Source of the DNA: Thermoproteota archaeon | Lineage (GTDB): Archaea > Thermoproteota > Thermoprotei > Thermofilales > B9-G17 | Length of the DNA stretch: 64,000 bases | Reading direction: 5' to 3' | Assembly: GCA_029258885.1 (NCBI GenBank) | Contig: JAPDJW010000002.1 | Location: 416,001 to 480,000 of the forward strand | Shown here: in pieces, positions 15,267 to 44,025 of the stretch | How positions within the stretch are numbered: the first letter of the stretch is position 1 | Layout of the letters: every line of letters starts with the position of its first letter | Notes under the pieces: model-generated | Databases searched by the model: none | What the model was told of the DNA's origin: nothing | Seen by the model: the letters and a program-made list of their open reading frames with translations, nothing else | Made by a program: the position numbers and the translations under genes

Positions 15267-16547
15267 ATGAGCGAGAAAACCTCTAGGCTACCTGGTTTCT
15301 ATAAGCTTACCCTTGAGGAGAGGCTTAAGAAGGTAGCTGAATTCGCCAACCTAACCGATGAGGAAGTAAACATGCTGAAGAAGGAGGGTAACTTAAGCCT
15401 AGACATTGCTCAGAGAATGATTGAAAACGTCATTGGAACAATGGCCTACCCCTTCGCAGTAGCCGTAAACTTCCTAATAAATAATAAGGACTACCTAATC
15501 CCAATGGTTCTCGAGGAACCTTCGGTGGTAGCTGCAGCCAGCAACGCCGCTAGAGTGATGAGGAAGTGGGGCGGAATACACACCACAAGCACAGGACCAG
15601 TAATGATAGGGCAGATACAGCTCGTAAACGTAGAGGATCCATTTGGAGCTAAAATGACGATACTCGAGCATAAGGATGAAATAATTAAGATAGCAAATGA
15701 GCAGGATCCAATACTAGTTAAGCTCGGCGGCGGAGCTAAGGACGTAGAGGTGAGGGTCATAGATTCACCCAAGGGACCAATGGTAATAACACACTTAATA
15801 GTGGACGTCAGAGACGCTATGGGGGCAAACGCCGTAAACACTATGTGCGAGAAAGTTGCCCCCCTAATAGAGAGAATAACTGGCGGGAGGGTTTATCTGA
15901 GAATAATATCAAACCTAGCAGACAAAAGGCTTGTAAGAGCACGGGTTAAGGTCGATAAAAACGATATAGGAGGAGAGGAGGTAGTAGATGGCATCGTAAT
16001 GGCCTGGGCGTTTGCGGCAGCAGACCCCTATAGAGCAGCAACTCACAATAAGGGAATACTAAACGGTGTAATCGCTGTAGCATTAGCGACGGCACAGGAT
16101 CATAGAGCAATAGAGGCTGGAGCTCATGCATACGCGGCCAAGACCGGTAGATACCTACCTTTAACTGTATGGGAGAAAGATAAGGATGGAAACCTGGTAG
16201 GCACATTAGAAATGCCTATGGCCGTGGGAATAGTTGGAGGAGCAACAAGAGTTCATCCAGTAGCTAGGATAGCATTGAAAATACTGGGTGTGAAAACGGC
16301 AACGGAACTAGCTGAAATAATGGGAGCAGTAGGATTAGCGCAAAACTTCGCAGCCTTAAGAGCTCTAGCAACTGAGGGAATACAGAGGGGCCATATGAAG
16401 CTTCACGCTAGAAATCTGGCAATGCAAGCTGGAGCTACGGGAGAGCTGGTCGATAAGATAGTTGAAATAATGGTTAGGGAAGGCAAGATAAGATACGATA
16501 GAGCCGTAGAGTTAGTTGAAGAATTTAAGAAGAAGGGTAAGCTTTAA
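15267..16547 (+). CDS. mvaA: Class II hydroxymethylglutaryl-CoA reductase
   Basis: SRLPGFYKL start; ENVIG; EEPSVVAA; DAMGAN; THNKG; EGIQRGHMKLH. These are class II signatures. Confidence 0.93.
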   Translation: MSEKTSRLPGFYKLTLEERLKKVAEFANLTDEEVNMLKKEGNLSLDIAQRMIENVIGTMAYPFAVAVNFLINNKDYLIPMVLEEPSVVAAASNAARVMRKWGGIHTTSTGPVMIGQIQLVNVEDPFGAKMTILEHKDEIIKIANEQDPILVKLGGGAKDVEVRVIDSPKGPMVITHLIVDVRDAMGANAVNTMCEKVAPLIERITGGRVYLRIISNLADKRLVRARVKVDKNDIGGEEVVDGIVMAWAFAAADPYRAATHNKGILNGVIAVALATAQDHRAIEAGAHAYAAKTGRYLPLTVWEKDKDGNLVGTLEMPMAVGIVGGATRVHPVARIALKILGVKTATELAEIMGAVGLAQNFAALRALATEGIQRGHMKLHARNLAMQAGATGELVDKIVEIMVREGKIRYDRAVELVEEFKKKGKL

Positions 16548-26456: not shown

Positions 26457-28571
26457 TTAGTAAAATATTGAGGCCAAGTAAAAGGCTACTAAACCTATCA
26501 CGTAAGCTACTGCAAGGCTTAATATTATCGAAAGAATTGCCCGCTTTGCTCCCCCCTCCTTATATATAGTGACTATCGTAGCTATACAGGGTACGTAGAG
26601 CGTAACCATAATCATAACAGCTAAGCTCTGGGGGAAGGTTAAACCAAGTTTCCTTATTGCTGATGCCGGATCAACCTCACCAGCTATTAGCGCAAGGGAT
26701 GATATGAAAGTCTCCTTAGCTACTATCCCCATAAGAAATGTGAATGCAAGCTTCCAAGAGCTCTCCGGATCTACCGCTAGAGGGGCAAATATGGGTGCAA
26801 GCATACGGCCTATGATCACTGCATACGTCTCTTCAATACTGGCCGCAGGGCCCTCTGGACCATAAGACGTTAGGAACCATATGATTAGGCTAAGTAGGAG
26901 AATAATCCCTCCAGCCTTCTTCAAGAAATGTTTAGAGTAGTCCCATGTAATCCACCATAATACCTTAGGTGAGGGTAGGTGTATCGGCGGAACCTCAAGC
27001 AATAGTTCAGGGGGGTGCTTAATCCCGTAAGCCCTCCTTATTAGTAGCGACGTTACGAAGTATGATATCATTGCAATGAGGTAGATAATTACTATTGATA
27101 ATATTTTCTCCTGTGGCGTGGGAAAGAGGGCTGCTGCCAGCGCTGTGATAACTACAAGCCTTGCCTGACATGGAATAAACGGCACCGATAGGATTATCTG
27201 TCTTCTCTCGTAATCCTCCGTCGAGGCCCTCGAGGCCATAACTGCTGGAACGTTACATCCCAAGGCTATTAGAGTCGGATAGACTGCCCTACCCGATAAG
27301 CCGAACTTACTGAAGAACTTATGGAGTGATACTGCAACGTACGGGCCTATACCGCCGTCCTCGAGAAATCCTAGAACTAGTAACGTCATGAATATTAGAG
27401 GGTAAAATGATAGGACCGAGCCTACGCCACCAATGATTCCGTCAGCGATCATACTTTTAATCCATATAGGTAAGTTCAATGTATAGATGTAACTAGAGAT
27501 GGCCTCAAACACTGATGAGAGAACTCCGGCTATGGTCATAGACTCTATCATTTCAGCTAAATCCTCAGATCCTAAAAAGCTGAAAATAAGGTTCAGCGGA
27601 AAACCCGTATTGAGGGTAAATACTAGAAAATATAATCCGAGAATTATGGAGAGGCTAATAAGGGGGCCTACTTTAGGTCTGAGGAAAAGTTTTTCCAAGG
27701 GACTGCCGAGCATGGGTCTTTTAAGAGTCCTCACTACAACCTCGCTCGTTACAGAGTCCACAAACCTATACCTAGTGAGTATAATTAATGCATCAACGCC
27801 CATTCCTACGCTCTTAGAAATAACCTGTCTTATCTCTCCAATTTTCTCTATGCATTCAGGGCTATGTTTAGCCAGAATATCCTCGAGATCAGGATCTCCT
27901 TCAAGCAATCTTATAGCAATCCACCTTCTCTTAACGCTGGGTATATAGGGACATTTAGATATAAGCCTCTCTACCTCACTTATTGATGGCTCCAGCTGTC
28001 CATAATTAAGTTTAAAGGTCTTATTTCTACGTCTGCCGGTAGATACGTCAACTATGGCGTTTAATAGCTCTCTTATTCCCTCGCCAGTAATGCTTGAGAC
28101 AGGGACTATCGGAACACCGAGTTTAGCTTCAAGCTTATCAACGTGTATGTGTATGCCCTCCTTATGCGTTGCATCCCACTTAGTTAAAGCTACTACAACC
28201 TTATTCGTTAGCTCTAGGACGTGTATAGCTAAATACAGAGTTCTTTCAATATTCGTAGAATCGACCAGAACTAGAACAACATCGTACTTACGGCTCAAGA
28301 GGAAGTTTTTAGTAACCTTTTCCTCAGGAGAAGTCCCCGTTAAGCCATATACTCCAGGAGTATCTATAAGCAGGATTTTCCTACCCCTATGCTTAACAAC
28401 ACCATACTTCCTCTCAACGGTTGTTCCAGGCCAATTAGCTATATGCGCTATCTCCTTCGTTAACGCGGTGAAGAGGGCAGACTTACCGACGTTAGGTTGG
28501 CCGACAACCGCTACTCTTATATCAAATCTTCTCTTAAACTCTCTGCTTTTAACGTCAAGAGACGGTCTCAA
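26457..28571 (-). CDS. feoB: Ferrous iron transporter FeoB
   Basis: GQPNVGKS, NWPGTTVE, DTPG, TKWD and SSITG G-motifs; LGCNVPA, PFIPCQAR and LYVPCIAT membrane motifs. Confidence 0.95.
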   Translation of the reverse strand: MRPSLDVKSREFKRRFDIRVAVVGQPNVGKSALFTALTKEIAHIANWPGTTVERKYGVVKHRGRKILLIDTPGVYGLTGTSPEEKVTKNFLLSRKYDVVLVLVDSTNIERTLYLAIHVLELTNKVVVALTKWDATHKEGIHIHVDKLEAKLGVPIVPVSSITGEGIRELLNAIVDVSTGRRRNKTFKLNYGQLEPSISEVERLISKCPYIPSVKRRWIAIRLLEGDPDLEDILAKHSPECIEKIGEIRQVISKSVGMGVDALIILTRYRFVDSVTSEVVVRTLKRPMLGSPLEKLFLRPKVGPLISLSIILGLYFLVFTLNTGFPLNLIFSFLGSEDLAEMIESMTIAGVLSSVFEAISSYIYTLNLPIWIKSMIADGIIGGVGSVLSFYPLIFMTLLVLGFLEDGGIGPYVAVSLHKFFSKFGLSGRAVYPTLIALGCNVPAVMASRASTEDYERRQIILSVPFIPCQARLVVITALAAALFPTPQEKILSIVIIYLIAMISYFVTSLLIRRAYGIKHPPELLLEVPPIHLPSPKVLWWITWDYSKHFLKKAGGIILLLSLIIWFLTSYGPEGPAASIEETYAVIIGRMLAPIFAPLAVDPESSWKLAFTFLMGIVAKETFISSLALIAGEVDPASAIRKLGLTFPQSLAVMIMVTLYVPCIATIVTIYKEGGAKRAILSIILSLAVAYVIGLVAFYLASIFY

Positions 28572-28798
28572 GGATAGGCCACCGGCTGAACAATGATTTT
28601 ACGTGCAACGCCCCTACCAATAGCCACCCTAGTTCCCCTAACCATAACAAGTATAGGGCCTGGAAAGTTTGAAATAACCTCTACAATGCTTCCAGGAGTA
28701 AATCCCATCTCCATAAGCCTCCTCCTAGCTCCAAAGCCACCTGCTATATACAGTACCCTAGCCCTAGCGCCCGGAGGAAGATCGGCAAGAGTTATCAT
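28568..28798 (-). CDS. feoA: Ferrous iron transport protein A
   Basis: TLADL.PG...RRLMEMGFTPG...GPI...RGTRVAIGRG. The start is placed at the ATG overlapping the dtxR stop (ATGA). Confidence 0.92.
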   Translation of the reverse strand: MITLADLPPGARARVLYIAGGFGARRRLMEMGFTPGSIVEVISNFPGPILVMVRGTRVAIGRGVARKIIVQPVAYP

Positions 28799-29460
28799 GA
28801 AACCACCTTCTCGACGAAAATAAACTCGCATACCTCCAGCGGAAGCTCATGAATTAAACCATTCATTTTAACTATAACAGCATTTTCTTCTCTATTCAGG
28901 ACCTCAATAACCCTATTAGGTCTAATGTCTAAATCTTTAACGTAAGCTAGAGGCTTCTTTAACTCAGTTACCCTAATAACCACGTACCTGCCACTACTAA
29001 CTGTCGACAAACGTTGCCCCCTACTTTCACCCCTGCTAGGAATAGGATTACCATGCGGGCAAAAACTGGGAAAGTTCAGGTATTCATCGGCTAGCTTAGC
29101 GAAGCTCTCAACATGCTCAAGTTCATGAGCCATATTATGAGCGCTAGCTAAATCCAAACCGAATACCTCGATAAGAAATACCTCAATGACTCTATGTCTC
29201 CTAATTATATCCCTAGCAACGCTTTTCCCAAGGGAAGTAAGCCTCAGCGTTCCGCGTCTAGTCTTCAGGACATACCCGTCTCTTGCAAGCCTATCAAGTA
29301 CACGCGATGCCGTAGCAAGCGTAACGCCAAGCTCAGACGCAATATACGATAACCTGGATTCTCCGAAGGTCTCCTCAAGCCTATACATTGTAGCGATGTA
29401 ATCCTCCCTCTTAGGCTTAACCTTCTTCTCAACTTTTACTAGGTTAACTTTATTAGACAC
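28795..29460 (-). CDS. DtxR/IdeR-family metal-dependent repressor with FeoA-like C-domain
   Basis: EDYIATMY, IASELGVTLATAS, RRHRVIEVFL, AHELEH and CPHGNPIP. Confidence 0.92.
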   Translation of the reverse strand: MSNKVNLVKVEKKVKPKREDYIATMYRLEETFGESRLSYIASELGVTLATASRVLDRLARDGYVLKTRRGTLRLTSLGKSVARDIIRRHRVIEVFLIEVFGLDLASAHNMAHELEHVESFAKLADEYLNFPSFCPHGNPIPSRGESRGQRLSTVSSGRYVVIRVTELKKPLAYVKDLDIRPNRVIEVLNREENAVIVKMNGLIHELPLEVCEFIFVEKVVS

Positions 29461-30405: not shown

Positions 30406-31614
30406 TTATCTTAAAAATAGCTTGCCTAGTGTATAGTATATCCTAAGGCAGTTTATCAGGTTTTCAATCTTTACGTATTCGTTGGGGACATGTGCTACTT
30501 CTCCTGGTCCTATAATTAGAGCTGGCGCCTTAGTGTAGTAGCTAAGTATTTCCGCGTCAGTATATCCCATAGTATATATTCTATGCGGCTCCTTACCTAA
30601 AACCTCCTTAAAGGCTGTAATGGCTATATCATATAGCCTCCTGCCCCCATCTGTACTCAAATCGATCATGTAGGGAGGTCTATGCTTTGGAAAGATTTCG
30701 ACTTCAACCTTAACGCATTTTTCCTCTGTATCGTATTCATGTTTATGCTTATCGACCAAGCTTTCAGCTATACCCTTAATCTGGGCAATAGCTTCCTCGA
30801 CGTCCTCGCCGTACACAAGCCTCCTATCAACGTATACCTCACATCTATCAGGTACAACGTTTATTTTCCTTCCACCTTTTATCATGGTAACTGAGACAAC
30901 ACCTTTCCTAACCTTATTCACGGTCACTATGGGTAGAATTCTAGGCTTAATCGCAGAGTTAAGGTTACTTATAGCCTCTATAAAGTCAACAGCCCTATAG
31001 ATAGCGTTAACGCCCATTTCAGGCCTACTGCTATGATAAGCCTTACCATTAAAGATGATTTTAAACCTAACGCTACCCCCATGCCCAACCCTTAGGGCAA
31101 GTTCCCTCTTCTCAAATACCGAGCCCTCCCCAACAATAATGCCGTTGACATTCATTCTGCTTAAAACGCCCCTGGAGGCAACGTACTCCGAACCCCACTT
31201 CTCTCCACCCTCCTCCCCAACAACCGCTGTATACACGAGTGTACCCTTAAATCCCTTTTTCCTTAAAGCAAGGAAAGCTAACGTAAGGGCAGCTAAGCCT
31301 CCTTTCATATCGGAGGAACCCAGCCCATAAATCCTATCACCCACAAGCCACGGCTCAAAGGGATCCCTCTCCCATCCCTCAGAGGGAGGAACAGTATCCA
31401 TGTGGCCATTAAACACGAGAACGGGGCTTCCCTCCCCCTCAACTGCGACCACGTTGCCATACTCATCCAGTTCGACTGCGACGCCATTGTCCTCGAGAAA
31501 ATCCCTCAAGTACTTTGCAATTTCATCCTCGTGGCCAGTGAGGCTTGGTATCGAAATAAGGCTCCTAGTAAGCTCAACTACCCTTTCCTCATAATCGATA
31601 ATATCAGTATTCAT
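30406..31614 (-). CDS. M20 family metallo-amidohydrolase (ArgE/DapE/LysK-like)
   Basis: NGHMDTVP, GSSDMKGG, VGEE, VGEG, HSSRPE.GVNAI, N-VVPD.C and GPG..AH.PNEY. Confidence 0.9.
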   Translation of the reverse strand: MNTDIIDYEERVVELTRSLISIPSLTGHEDEIAKYLRDFLEDNGVAVELDEYGNVVAVEGEGSPVLVFNGHMDTVPPSEGWERDPFEPWLVGDRIYGLGSSDMKGGLAALTLAFLALRKKGFKGTLVYTAVVGEEGGEKWGSEYVASRGVLSRMNVNGIIVGEGSVFEKRELALRVGHGGSVRFKIIFNGKAYHSSRPEMGVNAIYRAVDFIEAISNLNSAIKPRILPIVTVNKVRKGVVSVTMIKGGRKINVVPDRCEVYVDRRLVYGEDVEEAIAQIKGIAESLVDKHKHEYDTEEKCVKVEVEIFPKHRPPYMIDLSTDGGRRLYDIAITAFKEVLGKEPHRIYTMGYTDAEILSYYTKAPALIIGPGEVAHVPNEYVKIENLINCLRIYYTLGKLFLR

Positions 31615-31654: not shown

Positions 31655-32650
31655 CTATATATAGCCGTGAGCCTTATACCATTCAACAGTCTCCTTAAGC
31701 CCTGTCTTTAAATCGTATTTAGGTCTGTATCCAAGCTCCCTCTTAGCCTTCTCAATGCTATAAGCTCTATCAGAGGTTACGGCATCTACCGTGCTTACGT
31801 GCCACATAAAGTTCTCCCTACCCGTAATCTTGTTTACCAATTCAACGGGAGCTATCAAAATTTTAGCTAGTATGGGCGGTATATGATGTTTAGGAGGCGC
31901 TTTACCGAGAATTTCAGCTAGGATGTTAAATACTTCAATGTAGGTATAGGCTCTATCCTCGCTGATAATGTAGGTTTCGCCCACCGATACATCGCTTTTT
32001 TCAAGAACCAGCCTAAAGCCCTGACATACATCCTTAACGTAGACAAACTGTACAAGATTCCTACCTGAGCCCACTATAAACCTCGTCGCAAGAGAGTTTC
32101 TCGCAAGGGATGTAATAAAGTAGTATGATACATCGTTTACATTTCTAGGCCCATATACGCCAGATGGCCTAACAATAGTTGCCTTAAGCCCCTTCTTCAT
32201 GTATTCCTTAACCACGTTTTCCGCCGCCAGCTTTGATCGACCATACTCGTAAACTGGGTTTGGAGGAGTATTTTCATCAGCTGGCGGATTCTTCACTGGA
32301 CCTATGGCTTCAGTAGTACTACAATAAATAAACCTATCAACACCATTCTTTAAAGCCGCTTCAATAAGCCATCTAGTTCCCTCAACATTAACCTTCCAGT
32401 ACAGCTTCTTCTTACCGTGAAACGTATAGTATGCAGCAAGATGTATTATAGCATCAACTCCCCTAGTAACGTTAACGAGTGAGGGTGGATCTGTTAAATC
32501 ACCGTATCTAAGTTCAACTCCAAGTTCCTTAAGCAGATCTATCTTACTCGTCTTCCTAACCATGCCAATAACCGTATAGCCCTTAGATAGGAGGTTTTCA
32601 ACCAAGTGTCCGCCTATAAAGCCGGAGGCGCCTGTAACAAGCACTTTCAA
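31655..32650 (-). CDS. Extended SDR (NAD-dependent epimerase/dehydratase, 3-beta-HSD-like)
   Basis: VTGASGFIG, HLAA, NVEGT, YCSTT, YGRSK and RPSGVYGP. Confidence 0.9.
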   Translation of the reverse strand: MKVLVTGASGFIGGHLVENLLSKGYTVIGMVRKTSKIDLLKELGVELRYGDLTDPPSLVNVTRGVDAIIHLAAYYTFHGKKKLYWKVNVEGTRWLIEAALKNGVDRFIYCSTTEAIGPVKNPPADENTPPNPVYEYGRSKLAAENVVKEYMKKGLKATIVRPSGVYGPRNVNDVSYYFITSLARNSLATRFIVGSGRNLVQFVYVKDVCQGFRLVLEKSDVSVGETYIISEDRAYTYIEVFNILAEILGKAPPKHHIPPILAKILIAPVELVNKITGRENFMWHVSTVDAVTSDRAYSIEKAKRELGYRPKYDLKTGLKETVEWYKAHGYI

Positions 32651-34107
32651 ATAACACCCACCTCCCTACGCCTAAGGTAAATTGAATATGTAAGCTCTCT
32701 AGCTAGGTACATTCCATCAAACGGTTCAATGGCACTACGCATATACATATCTCTAAGCGGAACTATCCTATATACACGTAGCTTACATAGATTGGAGATA
32801 AAGGCTTCAGCATCTTTCTCTGGGAGAGCATACCCTACAGTCTGGACTCCATCAACCTCCTTGAATGTTTCCCTATGCGGAATGTTCTCTATTAACTTGA
32901 TGGCTTGATCAACCGTGTTCACACTAACAATTTCGATAAACCTCTTCCTAACGTGCAACTGATACTCAGGGAAGAACTCAATGACCTTATCTAAGACGGG
33001 CTTATCCTTAGAGACGACTATAGTCCAGGAAATATCTCCATTGTCGGGCGTAAACACTTCACACTCCTCAAACGTTAAAGCTCTCCTAACACTATGGACT
33101 AAATATCTCTCACTATCGTCGAGCTTCAGCGGAAATTTCTCAGAGTAGCCGTTAAGCCTCAAGCCTACCTTCGACGCAAATTCGATTAATTCCTCGTAGC
33201 TACCTATAAAGGTTGCTTCTGTAGGGGAGCTACACAGTTGTTGGTCGTATAGAACTATGTTTAAAGCAAGATCGTCAGCCGCCTTATCGAGATCCACGCC
33301 ACTACCTACAACAGCATATCCAGTTAAGGGACCGTTAACCATAAACTTAGGCTTGTGGGGATTACGTGCCACTTTCTCAGCTATGATAGTCCTAGCGGGC
33401 TCGCCTCCCCAAAAGTTCACGAGGTCAACCGGGGCCTTCTCCAGGAGATACCTTAAGGCTTCACTGTTGTGTCTCATATATGCGATTAGAATAGCATTTG
33501 ATAGAACCTCGGCTTCAGGATATTCGTCTGCTAGATCTAGAAGTAGCCTATAGACCTCAATAACGCCTAAGTGATTGGCTATTGAAGGCTTAAGTACAGT
33601 TACGTTACCCATTGCAAGAGATATGCACGTTGGAATTAGCGGCGGGATAAAGGAATTGCCAGCACCTATGATAAACACTGTGCCTATGGGGACGTGCCTG
33701 ACGTATTCGCCTGGTCTGAACTCTATGAAGCTGTCGATAGCCTTAACTCCACCGGGAAGTCCTACCTCAATGTTAGACAGTATATTATCATTATTAAATA
33801 ATATAGAAACAAATTTGAATTCTAAGTCTATGAGTTTCTCGCTATACCCAGTTTTCTCGGAAAGTTTTCTTTTGATGTTATTCAGCTCGCCCCTACGAAC
33901 CTTTTCATGCCATTTCTTGCCTATTAAACCGAGAATTTCCAGCCTCCTTAAGATGGGTATCTCCATCAGCTGTTTTCTAATAGCATGCGCCTTCTCTAGG
34001 ATTCCTTTAAGCGATTTAACTGTAGGCTCTACCACTGTTAAGTTGCCTAAGTTAAACGTCTCCTTTTCGATGGCCGTTTCCCTTCCGTGGAGAATCTCCA
34101 GCTGCAC
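32647..34107 (-). CDS. luxC: LuxC-like acyl-CoA/acyl-protein reductase
   Basis: PIGTVFIIGAGN, VLKPS, FWGG and YDQQLCSSP. The last matches the LuxC active-site D-Q-x-x-C-x-S motif in an aldehyde-dehydrogenase-like fold. Confidence 0.8.
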   Translation of the reverse strand: MQLEILHGRETAIEKETFNLGNLTVVEPTVKSLKGILEKAHAIRKQLMEIPILRRLEILGLIGKKWHEKVRRGELNNIKRKLSEKTGYSEKLIDLEFKFVSILFNNDNILSNIEVGLPGGVKAIDSFIEFRPGEYVRHVPIGTVFIIGAGNSFIPPLIPTCISLAMGNVTVLKPSIANHLGVIEVYRLLLDLADEYPEAEVLSNAILIAYMRHNSEALRYLLEKAPVDLVNFWGGEPARTIIAEKVARNPHKPKFMVNGPLTGYAVVGSGVDLDKAADDLALNIVLYDQQLCSSPTEATFIGSYEELIEFASKVGLRLNGYSEKFPLKLDDSERYLVHSVRRALTFEECEVFTPDNGDISWTIVVSKDKPVLDKVIEFFPEYQLHVRKRFIEIVSVNTVDQAIKLIENIPHRETFKEVDGVQTVGYALPEKDAEAFISNLCKLRVYRIVPLRDMYMRSAIEPFDGMYLARELTYSIYLRRREVGVI

Positions 34108-34110
34108 TTA

Positions 34111-35385
34111 CTACTCCACCTTCCTTCCCTCAGTCATAAGCTCCTCGAGAGTTCCTCCACAGGCCCTCTGTAGATCCCACCCTTCCTCCTTTGTCAATCG
34201 TCTAACGTAGACGTACTCCTTCCCATAGTATCTATCGGAGGGATGAGATCTAAGTATATCGCCCGGATAAAATACTTCAAGCCATGATGTCGTAAATGGA
34301 TTAAACATTCCAAGTATACCCTCACCATCTTCATGCATCATTTTAAACGTCTTCGGCTCCAGCAGAAATACGTGAGTAAGAGGATGAGGCATCAGATCCA
34401 TGACGCCAAACCTACTAATGAGGGCAGCTAACGTTTCAGTCATACCTAAAACATCCATAAATGGTACATCAATCTTTTCTCCTTTCTCGTTACGTGCATA
34501 GAAGTGTCTTCTAGCAAGCTCCACGATCTTATCATAGGGCGGTAGATCGGTAAAGCCCTTAGTACCACCTCCAGTTACTATAACTCCTCCCCTACCTAAA
34601 TCGACGGGCGGCGCTCCGGTTAAAATCCTCGTAAATATCCTCTTGATAAATCCAAGTTCACCGAACTTCTTAGAAAGCAGGTACACGCCAGCTGGCGCAG
34701 TAAAGAACAGCTTAGGCTCCTCCTTACTCTTCAGGAACTTAACCAGGTTATCCTTATTTGGAACGAGCCTCTGCCAAGGAGTCCCTTCCTTAACACCCGT
34801 TAAAAGTCTCATACCATAAAGCAATTCAATGCCCTTAGCCTCTAGAGCATAGTGTACGAACGCGACGAAATTCAGTCGCTCCTTAAGCTCAGGAGCCGCC
34901 ATAAACAACGCTATACCCTTATTCTCCTCGAGTTCCCCACCATACACATACTCGAACAACGCCGTATTTACGGTTATCATGATGGCTAAATCGAGGGGAC
35001 TCCTATAGACTTTAACGGGATTCCTACCCGTAGTACCGCTCGACATAAAGTATTTGCCACCGAGCTCAACATCCCTTATCAGGAACCTCTTGTGTCCCTC
35101 ACCCCTAATAAGCTCAGAAGGCACAGCAAGCTTTTCGAGATCCTCAAGCTCAGCATTCCTCGGATTAATATCCAGCTTCTCAAAAAGCCTAGCATAGTAG
35201 TCACTGTGTCTCCTGAAGTAATCTAAGGCCTCCCTTAAAAGACTTCTCCTTAAACTAAGCAAGTAATCAGGCGATTTTTCAAACAAGCTTCTATCGTGAA
35301 CTAGCTCCCATATCTTCTTAACGTAGGGATCCTCCCTCAGAAGCCTGCTTTGAGACGCCTTCTCAAGTATCTCGGATACTTTCAT
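34111..35385 (-). CDS. luxE: LuxE-like acyl-protein synthetase (adenylate-forming)
   Basis: FMSSGTTG P-loop; TGGGTKG (compare LuxE GGGWKG); DVLGMTE; GD motif; C-terminal QRACG (compare LuxE RGC with the acyl-accepting Cys). Confidence 0.8.
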   Translation of the reverse strand: MKVSEILEKASQSRLLREDPYVKKIWELVHDRSLFEKSPDYLLSLRRSLLREALDYFRRHSDYYARLFEKLDINPRNAELEDLEKLAVPSELIRGEGHKRFLIRDVELGGKYFMSSGTTGRNPVKVYRSPLDLAIMITVNTALFEYVYGGELEENKGIALFMAAPELKERLNFVAFVHYALEAKGIELLYGMRLLTGVKEGTPWQRLVPNKDNLVKFLKSKEEPKLFFTAPAGVYLLSKKFGELGFIKRIFTRILTGAPPVDLGRGGVIVTGGGTKGFTDLPPYDKIVELARRHFYARNEKGEKIDVPFMDVLGMTETLAALISRFGVMDLMPHPLTHVFLLEPKTFKMMHEDGEGILGMFNPFTTSWLEVFYPGDILRSHPSDRYYGKEYVYVRRLTKEEGWDLQRACGGTLEELMTEGRKVE

Positions 35386-35593
35386 TAAGACACCTCAAAC
35401 CAATATCTAAACCATCAGAAATAAATACTTTGACGTAAACCCTGTCAACAGATAACGAAGAACATTCATCAACCCGAAAAGGGTGTAATTACGGGGTATA
35501 GGGTGTTTATGCAAGCTAGCTAGTTTCCGTAATTATAGTGGGTACTAAGATAAGGTTTTAAGCTAGCGTATGCTATTATCTAAATAGCTAGGT

Positions 35594-35806
35594 ATGTATA
35601 AGTATATCGAAGTTAAACCCGACGTATGCGGAGGAAAGCCCGTTATCAAGGGTACGCGTGTCATCATTGAGATTATTTTAGAGTCGCTTGCTAATGGATG
35701 GAGCGTAAAGGAAACAGCAAAGGAATTTAAAATACCAGTAGAGGCGGTCCTGGAAGCATTGAAGTATGCCCATAACATAGTATCTAAAATAAGTGGCTAT
35801 GTATGA
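35594..35806 (+). CDS. DUF433 family antitoxin
   Basis: PDVCGGKPVIKGTRV...ILESLANGWSV.E motif. Confidence 0.9.
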   Translation: MYKYIEVKPDVCGGKPVIKGTRVIIEIILESLANGWSVKETAKEFKIPVEAVLEALKYAHNIVSKISGYV

Positions 35807-36128
35807 TACTTGCCGATGAAAGCATACATTATTCGCTAATAAAGGAGCTGAGAAGACTAGGCGTCATTGACACAGAGCTTAGAGGAATTTTCGATATAGA
35901 ACTAATTGAACTGGCCAATAAGAGAAACATGATCATATTGACTGAGAGCAGGGATTTTCTAAAAAACTATTAGGAGGAAGGTAAGGACAGGTTTAATGTA
36001 TGTATATTACTATAACTAAAGACAACTGTAGGGAGATAGCTGATCTCATCAGCCGTCATCTAAATAGGGCCAGAAATAACCTTATGATAGTTTACCGGGA
36101 TTATGTAGAGATAATAAGCCTGAAGTAA
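35803..36128 (+). pseudogene. DUF5615 PIN-like toxin, disrupted
   Basis: Not in the ORF track. ATGA overlap with DUF433. MILADESI...DIELIELA...IILTESRDF stops after 56 aa; the C-terminal part continues in other frames. Confidence 0.7.
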
Positions 36129-38105: not shown

Positions 38106-38846
38106 GTGGGATTCTTGAAGCCAATATACGTATATGCTAAGACGCTGCCCGAGGCTTGGGAGATAAGCATATATAAGCTATGGAAGGAGGGCATAACAAT
38201 AGACACTGAATACGGCGAGAATAGCAGGGATTGTCCAGCAGTAATATACGTAGAGGATCCCTTCGCTGAGCCGAGAATACACCTTAAAGGACTTACCGGC
38301 GGCTTTAAATCCCTTAGAGAATATCTAAGCGAAGTTATAGATGGAGTTAACGATCACCTAGTTGAGGCTGGCAAGGTTGACTACACGTATCACGAGAGGA
38401 TATTCAAGTATCCAGGGCTGAGATTCAACGCTGATATGGAGCGAATAAACCAGATAGAGTATGTAGTTAGGAAGCTATCCAATGCTCCATACAGTAGGAG
38501 AGCACAGGCAATAACTTGGGTCCCCCATCTTGATACTAGAAGTGAATATCCCCCATGTCTGCAGAGGCTATGGTTCAGGATCGTCAACGGCAAGTTAGTA
38601 CTACACATACATATAAGAAGCAATGATGCATTTAAAGCGGCTTTTATGAACATGTATGCCTTTACAGAGCTTCAGAGAACAGTAGCTAAAAGGTTAGGTG
38701 TAGATACCGGATACTATCTACATGTAGCCGATTCATGTCATATATATGAGAGGGACTGGAAGTGGGCTGAAAAATTCATTAAGCAAATAGAGAATGGGGT
38801 ATCTAAGAGGTATTATATGAGATCTGATATATTAGGTATAGGTTAG
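38106..38846 (+). CDS. thyA: Archaeal-type thymidylate synthase (ThyA fold)
   Basis: YTYHER, NQIEYV..KL...YSRRAQA, PPCL (catalytic Cys), RSND, N and S.HIY. Confidence 0.85.
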   Translation: MGFLKPIYVYAKTLPEAWEISIYKLWKEGITIDTEYGENSRDCPAVIYVEDPFAEPRIHLKGLTGGFKSLREYLSEVIDGVNDHLVEAGKVDYTYHERIFKYPGLRFNADMERINQIEYVVRKLSNAPYSRRAQAITWVPHLDTRSEYPPCLQRLWFRIVNGKLVLHIHIRSNDAFKAAFMNMYAFTELQRTVAKRLGVDTGYYLHVADSCHIYERDWKWAEKFIKQIENGVSKRYYMRSDILGIG

Positions 38847-41309: not shown

Positions 41310-41585
41310 ATGGGACTTCAGATAAAGATTAGAACGTTAGGCTACTTGGAGGATCTATTGGACAGGGAATTGGAGGTTAATGTTAATGCTACGTCAGTGC
41401 TGGATTTAATTATGGAGTTAGCCAAGCTTAAAGGCTTTAAACCATCGGAGATTCTCGATTCTCTAAGGGATGAAGATTATCTACTGTTGCTTAACGGTAG
41501 AAGCGTTAACTACGATATGCTTAAGAAGACTAAACTGAGAAGCGGGGACGTGGTAGTATTTATGCCTGTTGTTTCAGGCGGATAA
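41310..41585 (+). CDS. MoaD/ThiS/SAMP-family ubiquitin-like sulfur carrier
   Basis: LLLLNGR...TKLRSGDVV.FMPVVSGG with a C-terminal GG; ATG at 41310 preferred. Confidence 0.88.
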   Translation: MGLQIKIRTLGYLEDLLDRELEVNVNATSVLDLIMELAKLKGFKPSEILDSLRDEDYLLLLNGRSVNYDMLKKTKLRSGDVVVFMPVVSGG

Positions 41586-43337
41586 TGGCTCAAGCCTAGA
41601 CATTTTTATGAATAGTTTCTGGAACTCCTTTCTCTCAGGCATATTTAATACCCTTATTCTACGGCAAATTCTCCTAATCTTCTCTCTTTCGCTCATCGAT
41701 ACCAGATATATTTCAGCTCCTGCAAGCGATCCATTTCCTATAAAAACTATGTTCTCTTTCTCAACCCTCGGCAGTAATCCAATTTCAACGGCATTATCTG
41801 GGTTGATTCTAAAGCCGAAGCTACCAGCTACATACACTTTCTCCAAGTCGCTAGGCTTAATCCCCAATTGCTCCAGAAGAAAATAGTATGCAGTCTTAAA
41901 CGCTGAGATAACGAGCTGGAGCTTCCTAATATCAAGCTGAGTAACCACTATATCGCTGGAATCACTCGAGGCGACAACGAATTCAAGTATACTCTCCCTC
42001 CTCCTGACGCCTTTCCCTTCCCTTAACCTACCGTTTCGTTCAAGTAGTCCATGTCTAACGAGTTCAGCTAGTATATCCACGTATCCAGTACCACATATAC
42101 CCTTAGGATCAGTATTTCCTATAACTCTATACCTATCGTCACTTAAGCTAAAGCTTTCAATAGCTCCTTCAACAGCCATCATTCCATGCTTTAATCCCAC
42201 GCCCTCGAAAGCTGGTCCTGCTGGTACAGATGTAGCCACAATTTCATCGTTATACTTTACTACAACCTCACCGTTTGTACCTATATCTATAAGCATGGCA
42301 CGGTTATGTTCGAGCAGGCCGGATGCTAGTATATCGCCAGCAACATCGCCGCCTACAAATCCCCCAATTACGGGAAGCGTATAAACTATGGCTTCACTAT
42401 TTCCGATTAAGCCTAGGCTTCCAGTGTTAACTCTTATCTCCTCTAAGAACGGGGGTTCAAATGGATACGTGCCTAGGGTTGCAGGGGATATACCTAGGAC
42501 TAAAGCCGTCATAACCGTATTTCCGGCAATAGCTATGGAGTATATATCATCTGCGCATACATCGGAGGACGATATCAGCTCGGAGATATTATCATTTATC
42601 GTTTTGACAGCTGCCTCCTTAAGTTCAGAAACACCATTACGTCTCGTTGCATACTCTATACGGGATATAAGGTTATCTCCATACCTTATCTGATAGTTGT
42701 ATCTAAAGCTACTAGCTATGATCGATCCAGAGGATAGATCGATAAGAGATGAAACAACTGTAGTAGTACCTAAATCAACAGCAACACCATATATCCCTCG
42801 CTTAGATACTCCTAGAACCATCTCCTCCTCTAGGTCATATACTAAGTTAACTCTTTCTCCCTTAGCTACAATGGATGGAATGATTCGTCTAAAGCCCATG
42901 GAACAGGACTTGGGATTCAGACCATTTTTCCTAAGAACATTGAACACGTTATCGATAACTGAAGGTCCGCTGCGGCTAACCCTACCTAGGGGGAGGAGAA
43001 TAACCGATGGATTTACATTAATACTTCTTCTTATTCTCTCTCCGACAATGCCTCCCCTGATCCTCGGGATACTGATCCAAGTCTCTCCTAGAACTCTTGT
43101 TTGACATGCAAGCCGCCATCCCTTCTCGATAAGTTCGCCAAGTAGCTCCCTTTCCCTCAACGTTGGCTGACTAATATTGCCTTTCAATATCTTAACTCTA
43201 CATAAACCACATAAACCACGGCCGCCGCAGGAAGCACTGATCAATATTCCATTACTTCTTAATGCTTCGAGGAGGGTAATGTTCCTAGAAATGCTTAACT
43301 TAATACCATTAACATTAAGAACTATGTTTTCCTCCAT
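41574..43337 (-). CDS. Reductive activator of corrinoid proteins (RACo/RamA-like; 2Fe-2S + ASKHA/DUF4445)
   Basis: CGGRGLCGLC...RLACQ ferredoxin domain; AVDLGTTT; GDNLISRI; GGFVGGD; IDIGTNGE; AGPAFEG; GICGTG; Q.DIR; AGSFG; GNGSLAG. Confidence 0.92.
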   Translation of the reverse strand: MEENIVLNVNGIKLSISRNITLLEALRSNGILISASCGGRGLCGLCRVKILKGNISQPTLRERELLGELIEKGWRLACQTRVLGETWISIPRIRGGIVGERIRRSINVNPSVILLPLGRVSRSGPSVIDNVFNVLRKNGLNPKSCSMGFRRIIPSIVAKGERVNLVYDLEEEMVLGVSKRGIYGVAVDLGTTTVVSSLIDLSSGSIIASSFRYNYQIRYGDNLISRIEYATRRNGVSELKEAAVKTINDNISELISSSDVCADDIYSIAIAGNTVMTALVLGISPATLGTYPFEPPFLEEIRVNTGSLGLIGNSEAIVYTLPVIGGFVGGDVAGDILASGLLEHNRAMLIDIGTNGEVVVKYNDEIVATSVPAGPAFEGVGLKHGMMAVEGAIESFSLSDDRYRVIGNTDPKGICGTGYVDILAELVRHGLLERNGRLREGKGVRRRESILEFVVASSDSSDIVVTQLDIRKLQLVISAFKTAYYFLLEQLGIKPSDLEKVYVAGSFGFRINPDNAVEIGLLPRVEKENIVFIGNGSLAGAEIYLVSMSEREKIRRICRRIRVLNMPERKEFQKLFIKMSRLEPLSA

Positions 43338-43350
43338 TTACTTCAACCAA

Positions 43351-44025
43351 TTAATTACCCGTTTTCTCCCCAACAAGTTTCTTACATACTTCAACGGCTT
43401 TAACGGCATCTTCGGCATAGGCATCAGCACCTATTTGTCTAGCAAATTCCTCCGTAACTGGTGCACCACCAACTATAACCTTCACCTTATCCCTAAGCCC
43501 CTCCCTCTTAAGCAATTCGATAACGTTCTTCATCTCTATCATCGTAGTAGTCAAGAGTGCGGACATCGCAACAATATCGGCGTTAACTTCCTTAGCCTTC
43601 CTGACGAACTCTTCGGGCGCTACATCGACGCCTAAGTCGTAGACCTCGAAGCCAGCTATCTCAAGCATTGTCGCCACAATATTCTTACCGATATCGTGTA
43701 GATCGCCCTTAACAGTACCTATAACAATCCTTCCCAATACTTCCCTAGCACTGCCCTCAGCCGTAAGTAGTGGCTTAAGCTTCTCATCCATAATCTCCTT
43801 AAAGAGATCAGCTGAAATAATTAGCTCGGGCAGGAAATACTCCCCCTTCTCAAATAAATCGCCTATCTCTCTTATAGCAGGAGTTAAGGCGTTATCAATA
43901 ATATCTAGAGGCTTAATACCCATCCTTAAAGCCTCATCAACAGCCTCCTTAACCTCATCAATCCTTATCTCAACCATCAACCTCCTAATTCTTTCTAGAA
44001 TTTCCTCTCTATTCACAACAGACAC
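43351..44025 (-). CDS. Methyltransferase cognate corrinoid protein (MtmC/MttC-like)
   Basis: Cap domain IGDLFEKGEYFLPEL; B12-binding GTVKGDLHDIGKN (DxHxxG); DLGVDV; SALLTTT; VGGAP. Confidence 0.93.
   Translation of the reverse strand: MSVVNREEILERIRRLMVEIRIDEVKEAVDEALRMGIKPLDIIDNALTPAIREIGDLFEKGEYFLPELIISADLFKEIMDEKLKPLLTAEGSAREVLGRIVIGTVKGDLHDIGKNIVATMLEIAGFEVYDLGVDVAPEEFVRKAKEVNADIVAMSALLTTTMIEMKNVIELLKREGLRDKVKVIVGGAPVTEEFARQIGADAYAEDAVKAVEVCKKLVGEKTGN

Follow-up and report, generated by a model that had tools for sequence, protein, structure and literature searches.

A conserved archaeal gene cassette encoding LuxE-like, LuxC-family and short-chain dehydrogenase/reductase proteins, with a putative role in carrier-free carboxylic acid reduction

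We describe three adjacent genes in a 64,000-nucleotide stretch of DNA from a Thermoproteota archaeon (Thermofilales; contig JAPDJW010000002.1 of assembly GCA_029258885.1, positions 416,001 to 480,000), which we refer to as the window and within which all positions are counted. The genes lie on the minus strand and encode, in this order, a LuxE-like adenylating acyl-protein synthetase (E), a LuxC-family acyl-thioester reductase (C), and a short-chain dehydrogenase/reductase (SDR) of the extended type (Table 1). We conclude that the trio is a real, conserved and as yet uncharacterised three-enzyme cassette. The first two genes had been singled out in an earlier reading made from the letters of this DNA (the sequence-only reading), and the layout it described is found exactly where it was placed: two adjacent open reading frames (ORFs) with a 3-bp gap, a double stop codon, and a GGTGGAG ribosome-binding site (RBS) preceding a GTG start. 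The luxC RBS is followed by the stop codons TAG (34113-34111) and TAA (34110-34108, which constitutes the gap) and by the GTG at 34107, and the TTG start of the SDR gene overlaps the luxC TGA, the shared letters being TTGA. The TATA-like element 5' of luxE is, as we infer from its sequence, a candidate promoter; a sigma-70 promoter scan, a type of scan that has archaeal promoters outside its coverage, gave results at chance level.

Table 1. Genes and sequence elements of the cassette, with positions in the window
Feature	Position	Strand	Description or basis
LuxE-like adenylating acyl-protein synthetase	34111-35385	-	ORF, 424 aa; ANL N-terminal domain only
LuxC-family acyl-thioester reductase	32647-34107	-	ORF, 486 aa, GTG start
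Extended SDR, HpnA/Gox2253/3beta-HSD-like group	31655-32650	-	331 aa, TTG start
Codon of Cys409, predicted acyl carrier thiol of the LuxE-like protein	34159-34161	-	Equivalent of P. phosphoreum LuxE Cys364
Codon of catalytic Cys292 of LuxC	33232-33234	-	Alignment with P. phosphoreum LuxC Cys296
luxC RBS GGTGGAG, within the last luxE codons	34114-34120	-	Sequence
SDR RBS GGAGGTG, within the luxC end	32659-32665	-	Sequence
luxE RBS GAGGTG	35396-35391	-	Sequence
Candidate TATA-like box TATTTATT, ~40 nt 5' of the luxE ATG	region 35391-35430	-	Sequence; predicted promoter

By sequence and predicted structure, the reductase gene is a clear member of the LuxC family. The protein matches the Pfam LuxC model (PF05893) with 122.8 bits against a cut-off of 21, compared with only 39 bits for Aldedh, and its sole significant match among PDB sequences is 7xc6_A, the LuxC of Photobacterium phosphoreum (E = 2.5e-14), with the segment YDQQLC292 falling on the catalytic cysteine motif. 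The AlphaFold model (predicted local distance difference test score, pLDDT, 94) likewise has 7xc6_A as its top Foldseek match at a TM-score of 0.81, and the aldehyde dehydrogenase (ALDH) family rows listed reach at most 0.69. Residues Q289-C292 are invariant in 73 LuxC homologues (Cys292 in 73/73), the other motif named earlier, FWGG, is at 232-235, and the catalytic cysteine motif reads YDQQLC292SSP. An invariant Asn258 aligns with the catalytic Glu of the ALDH 5uju, which fits a LuxC-type enzyme where the thioester is not hydrolysed (PMC9157457). The protein scores far below the curated cut-off of the NCBIfam equivalog NF052251 for long-chain fatty acyl reductase (68.2 bits vs 750). One homologous luxC (genome G024, L003 near 2298-2302) has an in-frame TAG just before QLCSSP, which could be a sequencing error or mark a pseudogene.

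The LuxE-like protein represents, as judged from sequence profiles and modelling, a divergent subfamily that lies outside the Pfam model and probably works like LuxE. Weak matches to Pfam LuxE (PF04443) occur in 8 of 76 homologues (best E = 2.9e-7), and the profile built from the 76 sequences has as its best PDB match the LuxE chain 7xc6_E (E = 8.9e-5), ahead of the PaaK ligases. In P. phosphoreum, the LuxE architecture is distinguished by a missing C-terminal subdomain, a catalytic Lys moved to the GGG loop and a short Cys-bearing tail instead, the hallmark residues being K238, R354/R355 and C364 (PMC9157457). Our model (pLDDT 87) has a PaaK/EhpF fold, with PaaK, ClxA and EhpF among its fold neighbours, and its residues 30-401 align to residues 10-335 only of the 432 in PaaK, that is, to the N-terminal domain (Z 27). 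All of the hallmarks appear to be retained: Arg395/Arg396 correspond to R354/R355 by profile alignment and Lys276 and Cys409 are equated with their counterparts by motif position, the roles being transferred from PMC9157457. Residues S115-G117, K276, G314, E317, R395 and R396 are invariant in 76/76 homologues, Cys409 is kept in 75/76, and a motif R-x10/11-RAC is present in 83 of 86 LuxE-like sequences. The motifs quoted in the sequence-only reading are thus all found (SSGTTG 115-120, GGGTKG 272-277, GMTE 314-317 and RAC409G in E), with conservation across the 76 and 73 homologues far beyond chance, and both cysteines fall at the Lux positions, Cys292 by alignment. Residues 412-424 of the tail have low pLDDT, fitting a mobile arm. 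Among Atlas folds, two archaeal clusters and an unnamed bacterial cluster come closest, and LuxE and a LuxE-LuxC fusion cluster follow.

In the third protein the SDR motifs are intact (GxxGxxG, Ser111, Tyr136-xxx-Lys140), and its conserved Arg32 is a signature of the NADP type that is typical of reductases. Its best PDB sequence match, over the full length, is 3wj7 (E = 3e-40), which we take to be Gox2253, described as an aldehyde reductase. The best NCBIfam matches are HpnA, SdmB and OleD, every one of them below cut-off.

The partnership of E and C is supported by a natural LuxE-LuxC fusion protein of 884 aa (P0251) and by a modelled complex. The E-C model reached a score of 0.69, where the best of three controls had 0.00, and passed a mark that is reached by 58 of 80 solved pairs and 2 of 110 mismatched pairs; across the runs, contact agreement was at least 62% and partner pLDDT at least 82. 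On the E side, the modelled interface is made up of residues 67-97, 344-357 and 397-399, which resemble the parts of LuxE that are resolved against LuxC in 7xc6. Because a like complex has already been solved (7xc6), such a pass may indicate likeness rather than binding.

The two protein searches gave 186 and 183 relatives. Among the 71 archaeal loci with enough downstream DNA the arrangement E-C-SDR is found in 65, E-C in 2 and E alone in 4; at least two of the E-only loci appear to have decayed, as seen from a remnant of the SDR or from a changed tail. The synteny anticipated for luxE and luxC is therefore conserved, but as a unit of three in which the SDR gene had been overlooked, and the notion of a stand-alone pair ending at the aldehyde is not supported in that form, since the conserved SDR belongs to the unit, which makes an alcohol the likely end product. 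Among 14 Thermofilaceae genomes, an SDR orthologue is present in exactly the 7 that have LuxC. No neighbour besides the trio is conserved across lineages in the loci examined. Several candidates for further cassette membership were rejected as each is limited to one lineage, namely a MenA-like prenyltransferase (17 loci), a ComB-like gene, a glutaredoxin/FTR pair and a major facilitator superfamily (MFS) transporter. The prenyltransferase, of the UbiA type, lies 3' of the SDR gene and faces a radical S-adenosylmethionine (SAM) gene in L031, L037, L038 and 14 other Methanomassiliicoccales loci.

The genome that contains the window (2.1 Mb, 99.89% complete) has no match to LuxD (PF02273) or luciferase (PF00296), so that the earlier statement that luxD and luxAB are missing holds for the whole genome. 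Nor does it have a match to acyl carrier protein (ACP) or carrier domains (PF00550), to phosphopantetheinyl transferase (PPTase; PF01648), or to any AMP-binding ligase other than the LuxE-like protein, which appears from these searches to be the sole ANL enzyme of the genome. That no carrier and no other ANL enzyme was found supports direct Cys-to-Cys transfer, and agrees with the carrier-free operation suggested in the sequence-only reading.

We propose that the three genes form one operon for carboxylic acid reduction that would depend on neither coenzyme A (CoA) nor ACP; the whole of the chemistry and the direction in which it runs, as well as the SDR step and the substrate, we infer by homology. 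In the first step, the LuxE-like protein would use ATP to form an acyl-adenylate with the participation of Lys276 and Arg396, and the acyl group would then be loaded on its own tail Cys409. In the second step, the Cys409 tail would swing into the docked LuxC and pass the acyl group to Cys292, where reduction with NAD(P)H would yield the aldehyde. In the third step, the co-encoded SDR, probably NADPH-dependent, would convert the aldehyde to the primary alcohol. We assign a probability of roughly 70% to the full relay from acid through aldehyde to alcohol, carrier-free and driven by ATP and NAD(P)H; the chemistry proposed for the first two enzymes we regard as very probable.

Several observations weigh against this proposal. 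In single-sequence searches the LuxE-like protein alone has no Pfam match, PF04443 included, and no PDB match, so that the expected assignment of the pair by Pfam models succeeded for LuxC and failed for LuxE. The comparison with the Photobacterium structures is similarly divided: LuxC agrees, while the solved folds nearest to the LuxE-like model (Foldseek, VIA) are PaaK-type aryl ligases even though its architecture is of the LuxE type. The ranking of PaaK above LuxE arises in part because just 118 LuxE residues are resolved in 7xc6. In LuxC, the alignment places Ser293 at the position of Phe297, which in P. phosphoreum is needed for myristate activity (PMC9157457); the substrate is therefore probably other than that of the lux enzyme, and myristate specificity is not to be assumed. 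As for the third step, ketones and sterol-like alcohols are also among the substrates of SDRs in this group, distant relatives (Theionarchaea, the E-C fusion and actinobacteria) have E-C without an SDR, and genome G005 has a 75% identical SDR (L107 2325-3314) that stands alone on a separate contig, unlinked to any LuxE/C pair.

In one alternative, the pathway proper would end with the aldehyde, and the SDR would work at another site of that molecule, on a ketone or a sterol-like hydroxyl or in an epimerisation. The HpnA, SdmB and OleD matches, all below cut-off, and the existence of E-C pairs without SDR would be consistent with it, as would the bacterial GriC and GriD proteins, which end at the aldehyde. 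We nevertheless consider it unlikely, in view of the nearest solved SDR, which we take to be an aldehyde reductase, and of the lack, by the trio, of a further conserved gene (transaminase, aldolase or transferase) that would use the free aldehyde. The pathway could also run as an oxidative or acyl relay in which the SDR oxidises an alcohol, LuxC converts the aldehyde to a thioester, and LuxE either sets the acid free or hands the acyl group to an acceptor. In principle these reactions are reversible, and luxE and luxC occur in enterobacterial flagellin islands, where lipid modification has been proposed. We find this improbable: the conserved Arg32 of the SDR is an NADP-type signature typical of reductases, the characterised relatives LuxCE, GriCD and TabE (the last a LuxC-related acyl reductase) run reductively, the trio has no linked gene for an acceptor or transferase that is conserved, and with a single thiolase region found in the genome there is no evident route of beta-oxidation. 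A CoA ligase of the ordinary PaaK-like kind beside an ordinary aldehyde dehydrogenase, which the labels of some homologues ('phenylacetate-CoA ligase', 'aldehyde dehydrogenase') and the PaaK fold neighbours might suggest, is strongly disfavoured by the missing C-terminal subdomain, on which PaaK has its catalytic Lys, the conserved tail Cys, the LuxC score of 122.8 bits against 39 for Aldedh, and the absence of the ALDH catalytic Glu.

The reductive relay from acid to alcohol uses a mechanism known from LuxCE, and luciferase-free uses of it are known in bacteria; the archaeal trio is the new part. No description of an archaeal luxE-luxC-SDR cassette was found in literature searches, the coverage of which leaves out most subscription journals. 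With LuxC-LuxE of P. phosphoreum (7XC6; PMC9157457) the archaeal proteins share the folds, both catalytic Cys residues, the LuxE Lys and Arg-Arg, the missing C-terminal subdomain and, according to the complex model, a predicted interface in similar regions. They differ in a LuxC identity of ~20%, the gene order E-C-SDR with its extra SDR, the replacement of Phe297 by Ser, the amphipathic helix at E 244-256, the lack of luxD, luxAB and luxG, and the host, an archaeon whose genome gave no ACP match. Unlike the phosphopantetheine-dependent carboxylic acid reductases (CAR), the system has no carrier domain, and its genome no ACP or PPTase match.

A functional parallel is GriC/GriD of Streptomyces griseus (grixazone), which are described as an adenylating protein and a reductase without luciferase that convert 3-amino-4-hydroxybenzoate to its aldehyde (cited in PMC10179220). 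That such bacterial two-component acid reductases are known makes the archaeal pair less surprising. Unlike the archaeal trio, GriC/GriD sit in a secondary-metabolite cluster that makes their substrate, and the aldehyde is used oxidatively downstream. A similar arrangement is seen for ehpF/ehpG of the D-alanyl-griseoluteic acid pathway (PDB 3HGV, 3L2K), where an AMP-binding gene lies beside one of the ALDH family and the operon also includes an SDR, and the short fold of EhpF matches the LuxE-like model (Z 21); yet the identity is 12-13% and EhpF/EhpG are part of a phenazine operon. The hydroxymethyl group of D-alanyl-griseoluteic acid derives from a dicarboxylate, and we take EhpF and EhpG to perform the reduction. 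SDRs of the Gox2253/HpnA type (3WJ7), to which the best PDB match of the third gene belongs, are unlinked to LuxE/LuxC and have a broad group substrate range. More generally, luxE and luxC occur in flagellin glycosylation islands, and ehpF and ehpG in phenazine operons.

The ATP to AMP cost of the proposed reaction, taken together with the patchy distribution, points to a low-flux accessory role in biosynthesis or salvage rather than in energy metabolism. Our guess as to the substrate is weakly based: a lipophilic or isoprenoid acid seems the best candidate, an aromatic or heteroaromatic acid is plausible to a lesser degree, and a small polar acid is rather unlikely. Weak clues to a lipophilic acid are the group to which the SDR belongs and the helix at E 244-256, which is basic (charge +2.7) and amphipathic (mean moment 0.58) yet unexceptional among the helices of this protein. 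Similarly weak clues to an aromatic acid come from the fold neighbours PaaK, ClxA and EhpF and from the nearby aromatic-acid-type MFS or MenA-like gene, each in one lineage only and below cut-off. It is conceivable, if unlikely, that the cassette provides a hitherto undescribed biosynthetic route of archaea by which an acid, either lipophilic (isoprenoid or alkyl) or aromatic and prenylatable, is reduced to an alcohol for an unrecognised membrane lipid or cofactor; as part of the same tentative reading, this route would be common to Thermoproteota, Methanomassiliicoccales and Odinarchaeota. Two specific roles were rejected: replacement of 3-hydroxy-3-methylglutaryl-CoA (HMG-CoA) reductase, which is present in carriers and non-carriers of the cassette alike (32 of 33 genomes), and salvage for a missing prenyl-diphosphate synthase, as PF00348 is found in 32/32 genomes. 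A third, synthesis of the butanetriol (BDGT) backbone, found no support in a search of paper titles, and the range of carriers does not suggest it.

Among the 80 loci listed, all archaeal, are representatives of Thermoprotei, Methanosuratincolia, Nitrososphaeria, Brockarchaeota, Odinarchaeota, Methanomassiliicoccales, Archaeoglobales and Bathyarchaeota. In a sample of the phylum, a strong match to the LuxE-like protein is present in 27 of 301 genomes, of which 24 also have LuxC; given this patchy distribution, the cassette is not a core archaeal pathway. The LuxE tree is mostly lineage-like, with a branch that sets Thermoplasmata apart, support for a group of Thermoprotei, and many losses. The window genome belongs to a Thermofilales family other than that of Thermofilum adornatum and Infirmifilum uzonense, and its LuxE copy falls outside the Thermofilaceae copies; a forced grouping was rejected by the approximately unbiased (AU) test (p = 0.0066), which was run after a first tree had been seen. 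This placement suggests a separate acquisition or hidden paralogy.

Cassette genes occur in cultured strains, namely Thermofilum adornatum, Infirmifilum uzonense, Thermosphaera aggregans and chiliense, and Ca. Methanosuratincola, and close relatives without the cassette offer natural controls, which makes the question testable now. For the homologue in Ca. M. petrocarbonis (L016), two RNA-Seq runs from one study cover the cassette within one contig at depths of 1145 and 1258, compared with 104-474 in the upstream and 526-938 in the downstream flank; every bin is covered and carry-over of DNA is possible, a raw-read run gave nothing, and the data are weak evidence of expression at best. The supplement of a T. 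adornatum proteomics study does not list the expected cassette locus tags. If the proposal is correct, LuxCE chemistry extends to Archaea with a fixed third enzyme, many archaea of mostly hot-spring or anoxic lineages make an unknown alcohol, and a heat-stable acid reductase with no need for phosphopantetheine or CoA would be a useful biocatalyst.

Related gene arrangements were observed in other genomes. In L091 (4668-12655) and L093 (4637-12648, a Theionarchaea-like sequence), a carbamoyltransferase gene, a gene for an unknown protein and a pair of radical SAM genes directly precede LuxE-LuxC, which is fused in L091, behind a TrmB regulator; judged by its gene content, this looks like an undescribed archaeal biosynthetic cluster. 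Two genomes of another Thermofilales family (G005 and G012) have a second, distinct LuxE-LuxC pair (L105 2547-5404 and L108 4106-6951) that resembles canonical LuxE more closely (89 bits in Pfam) and is found without SDR. In Pseudonocardia sediminis (L092 11572-12678), a luxC homologue that is missing from the called-gene list follows the LuxE-like gene.

In the window itself, an M20 deacylase of the ArgE/DapE family (30406-31614, minus strand), which scores above the TIGR01910 cut-off, lies 40 bp 3' of the SDR gene; it was rejected as a fourth cassette gene since it is not kept beside the cassette elsewhere. Directly upstream of the cassette are a DUF433 gene (35594-35806), a shortened DUF5615 PIN-like gene (35803-35973) and a possible further DUF5615 fragment (36000-36128), all on the plus strand, which together are a decayed pair of toxin-antitoxin type. 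An HMG-CoA reductase gene (15267-16547, plus strand) lies ~15 kb from the cassette, and the same gene is found 7-15 kb from the cassette in three Thermosphaera-genus genomes, probably by chance. Elsewhere in the window, motifs identify a feoB-feoA-DtxR-like iron uptake unit (26457-29460, minus strand) and a gene for a corrinoid-binding protein followed by one for an ASKHA/ferredoxin protein resembling a corrinoid reactivase (41574-44025, minus strand), and a gene of the thymidylate synthase family (Pfam, 69 bits) is located at 38106-38846 on the plus strand.

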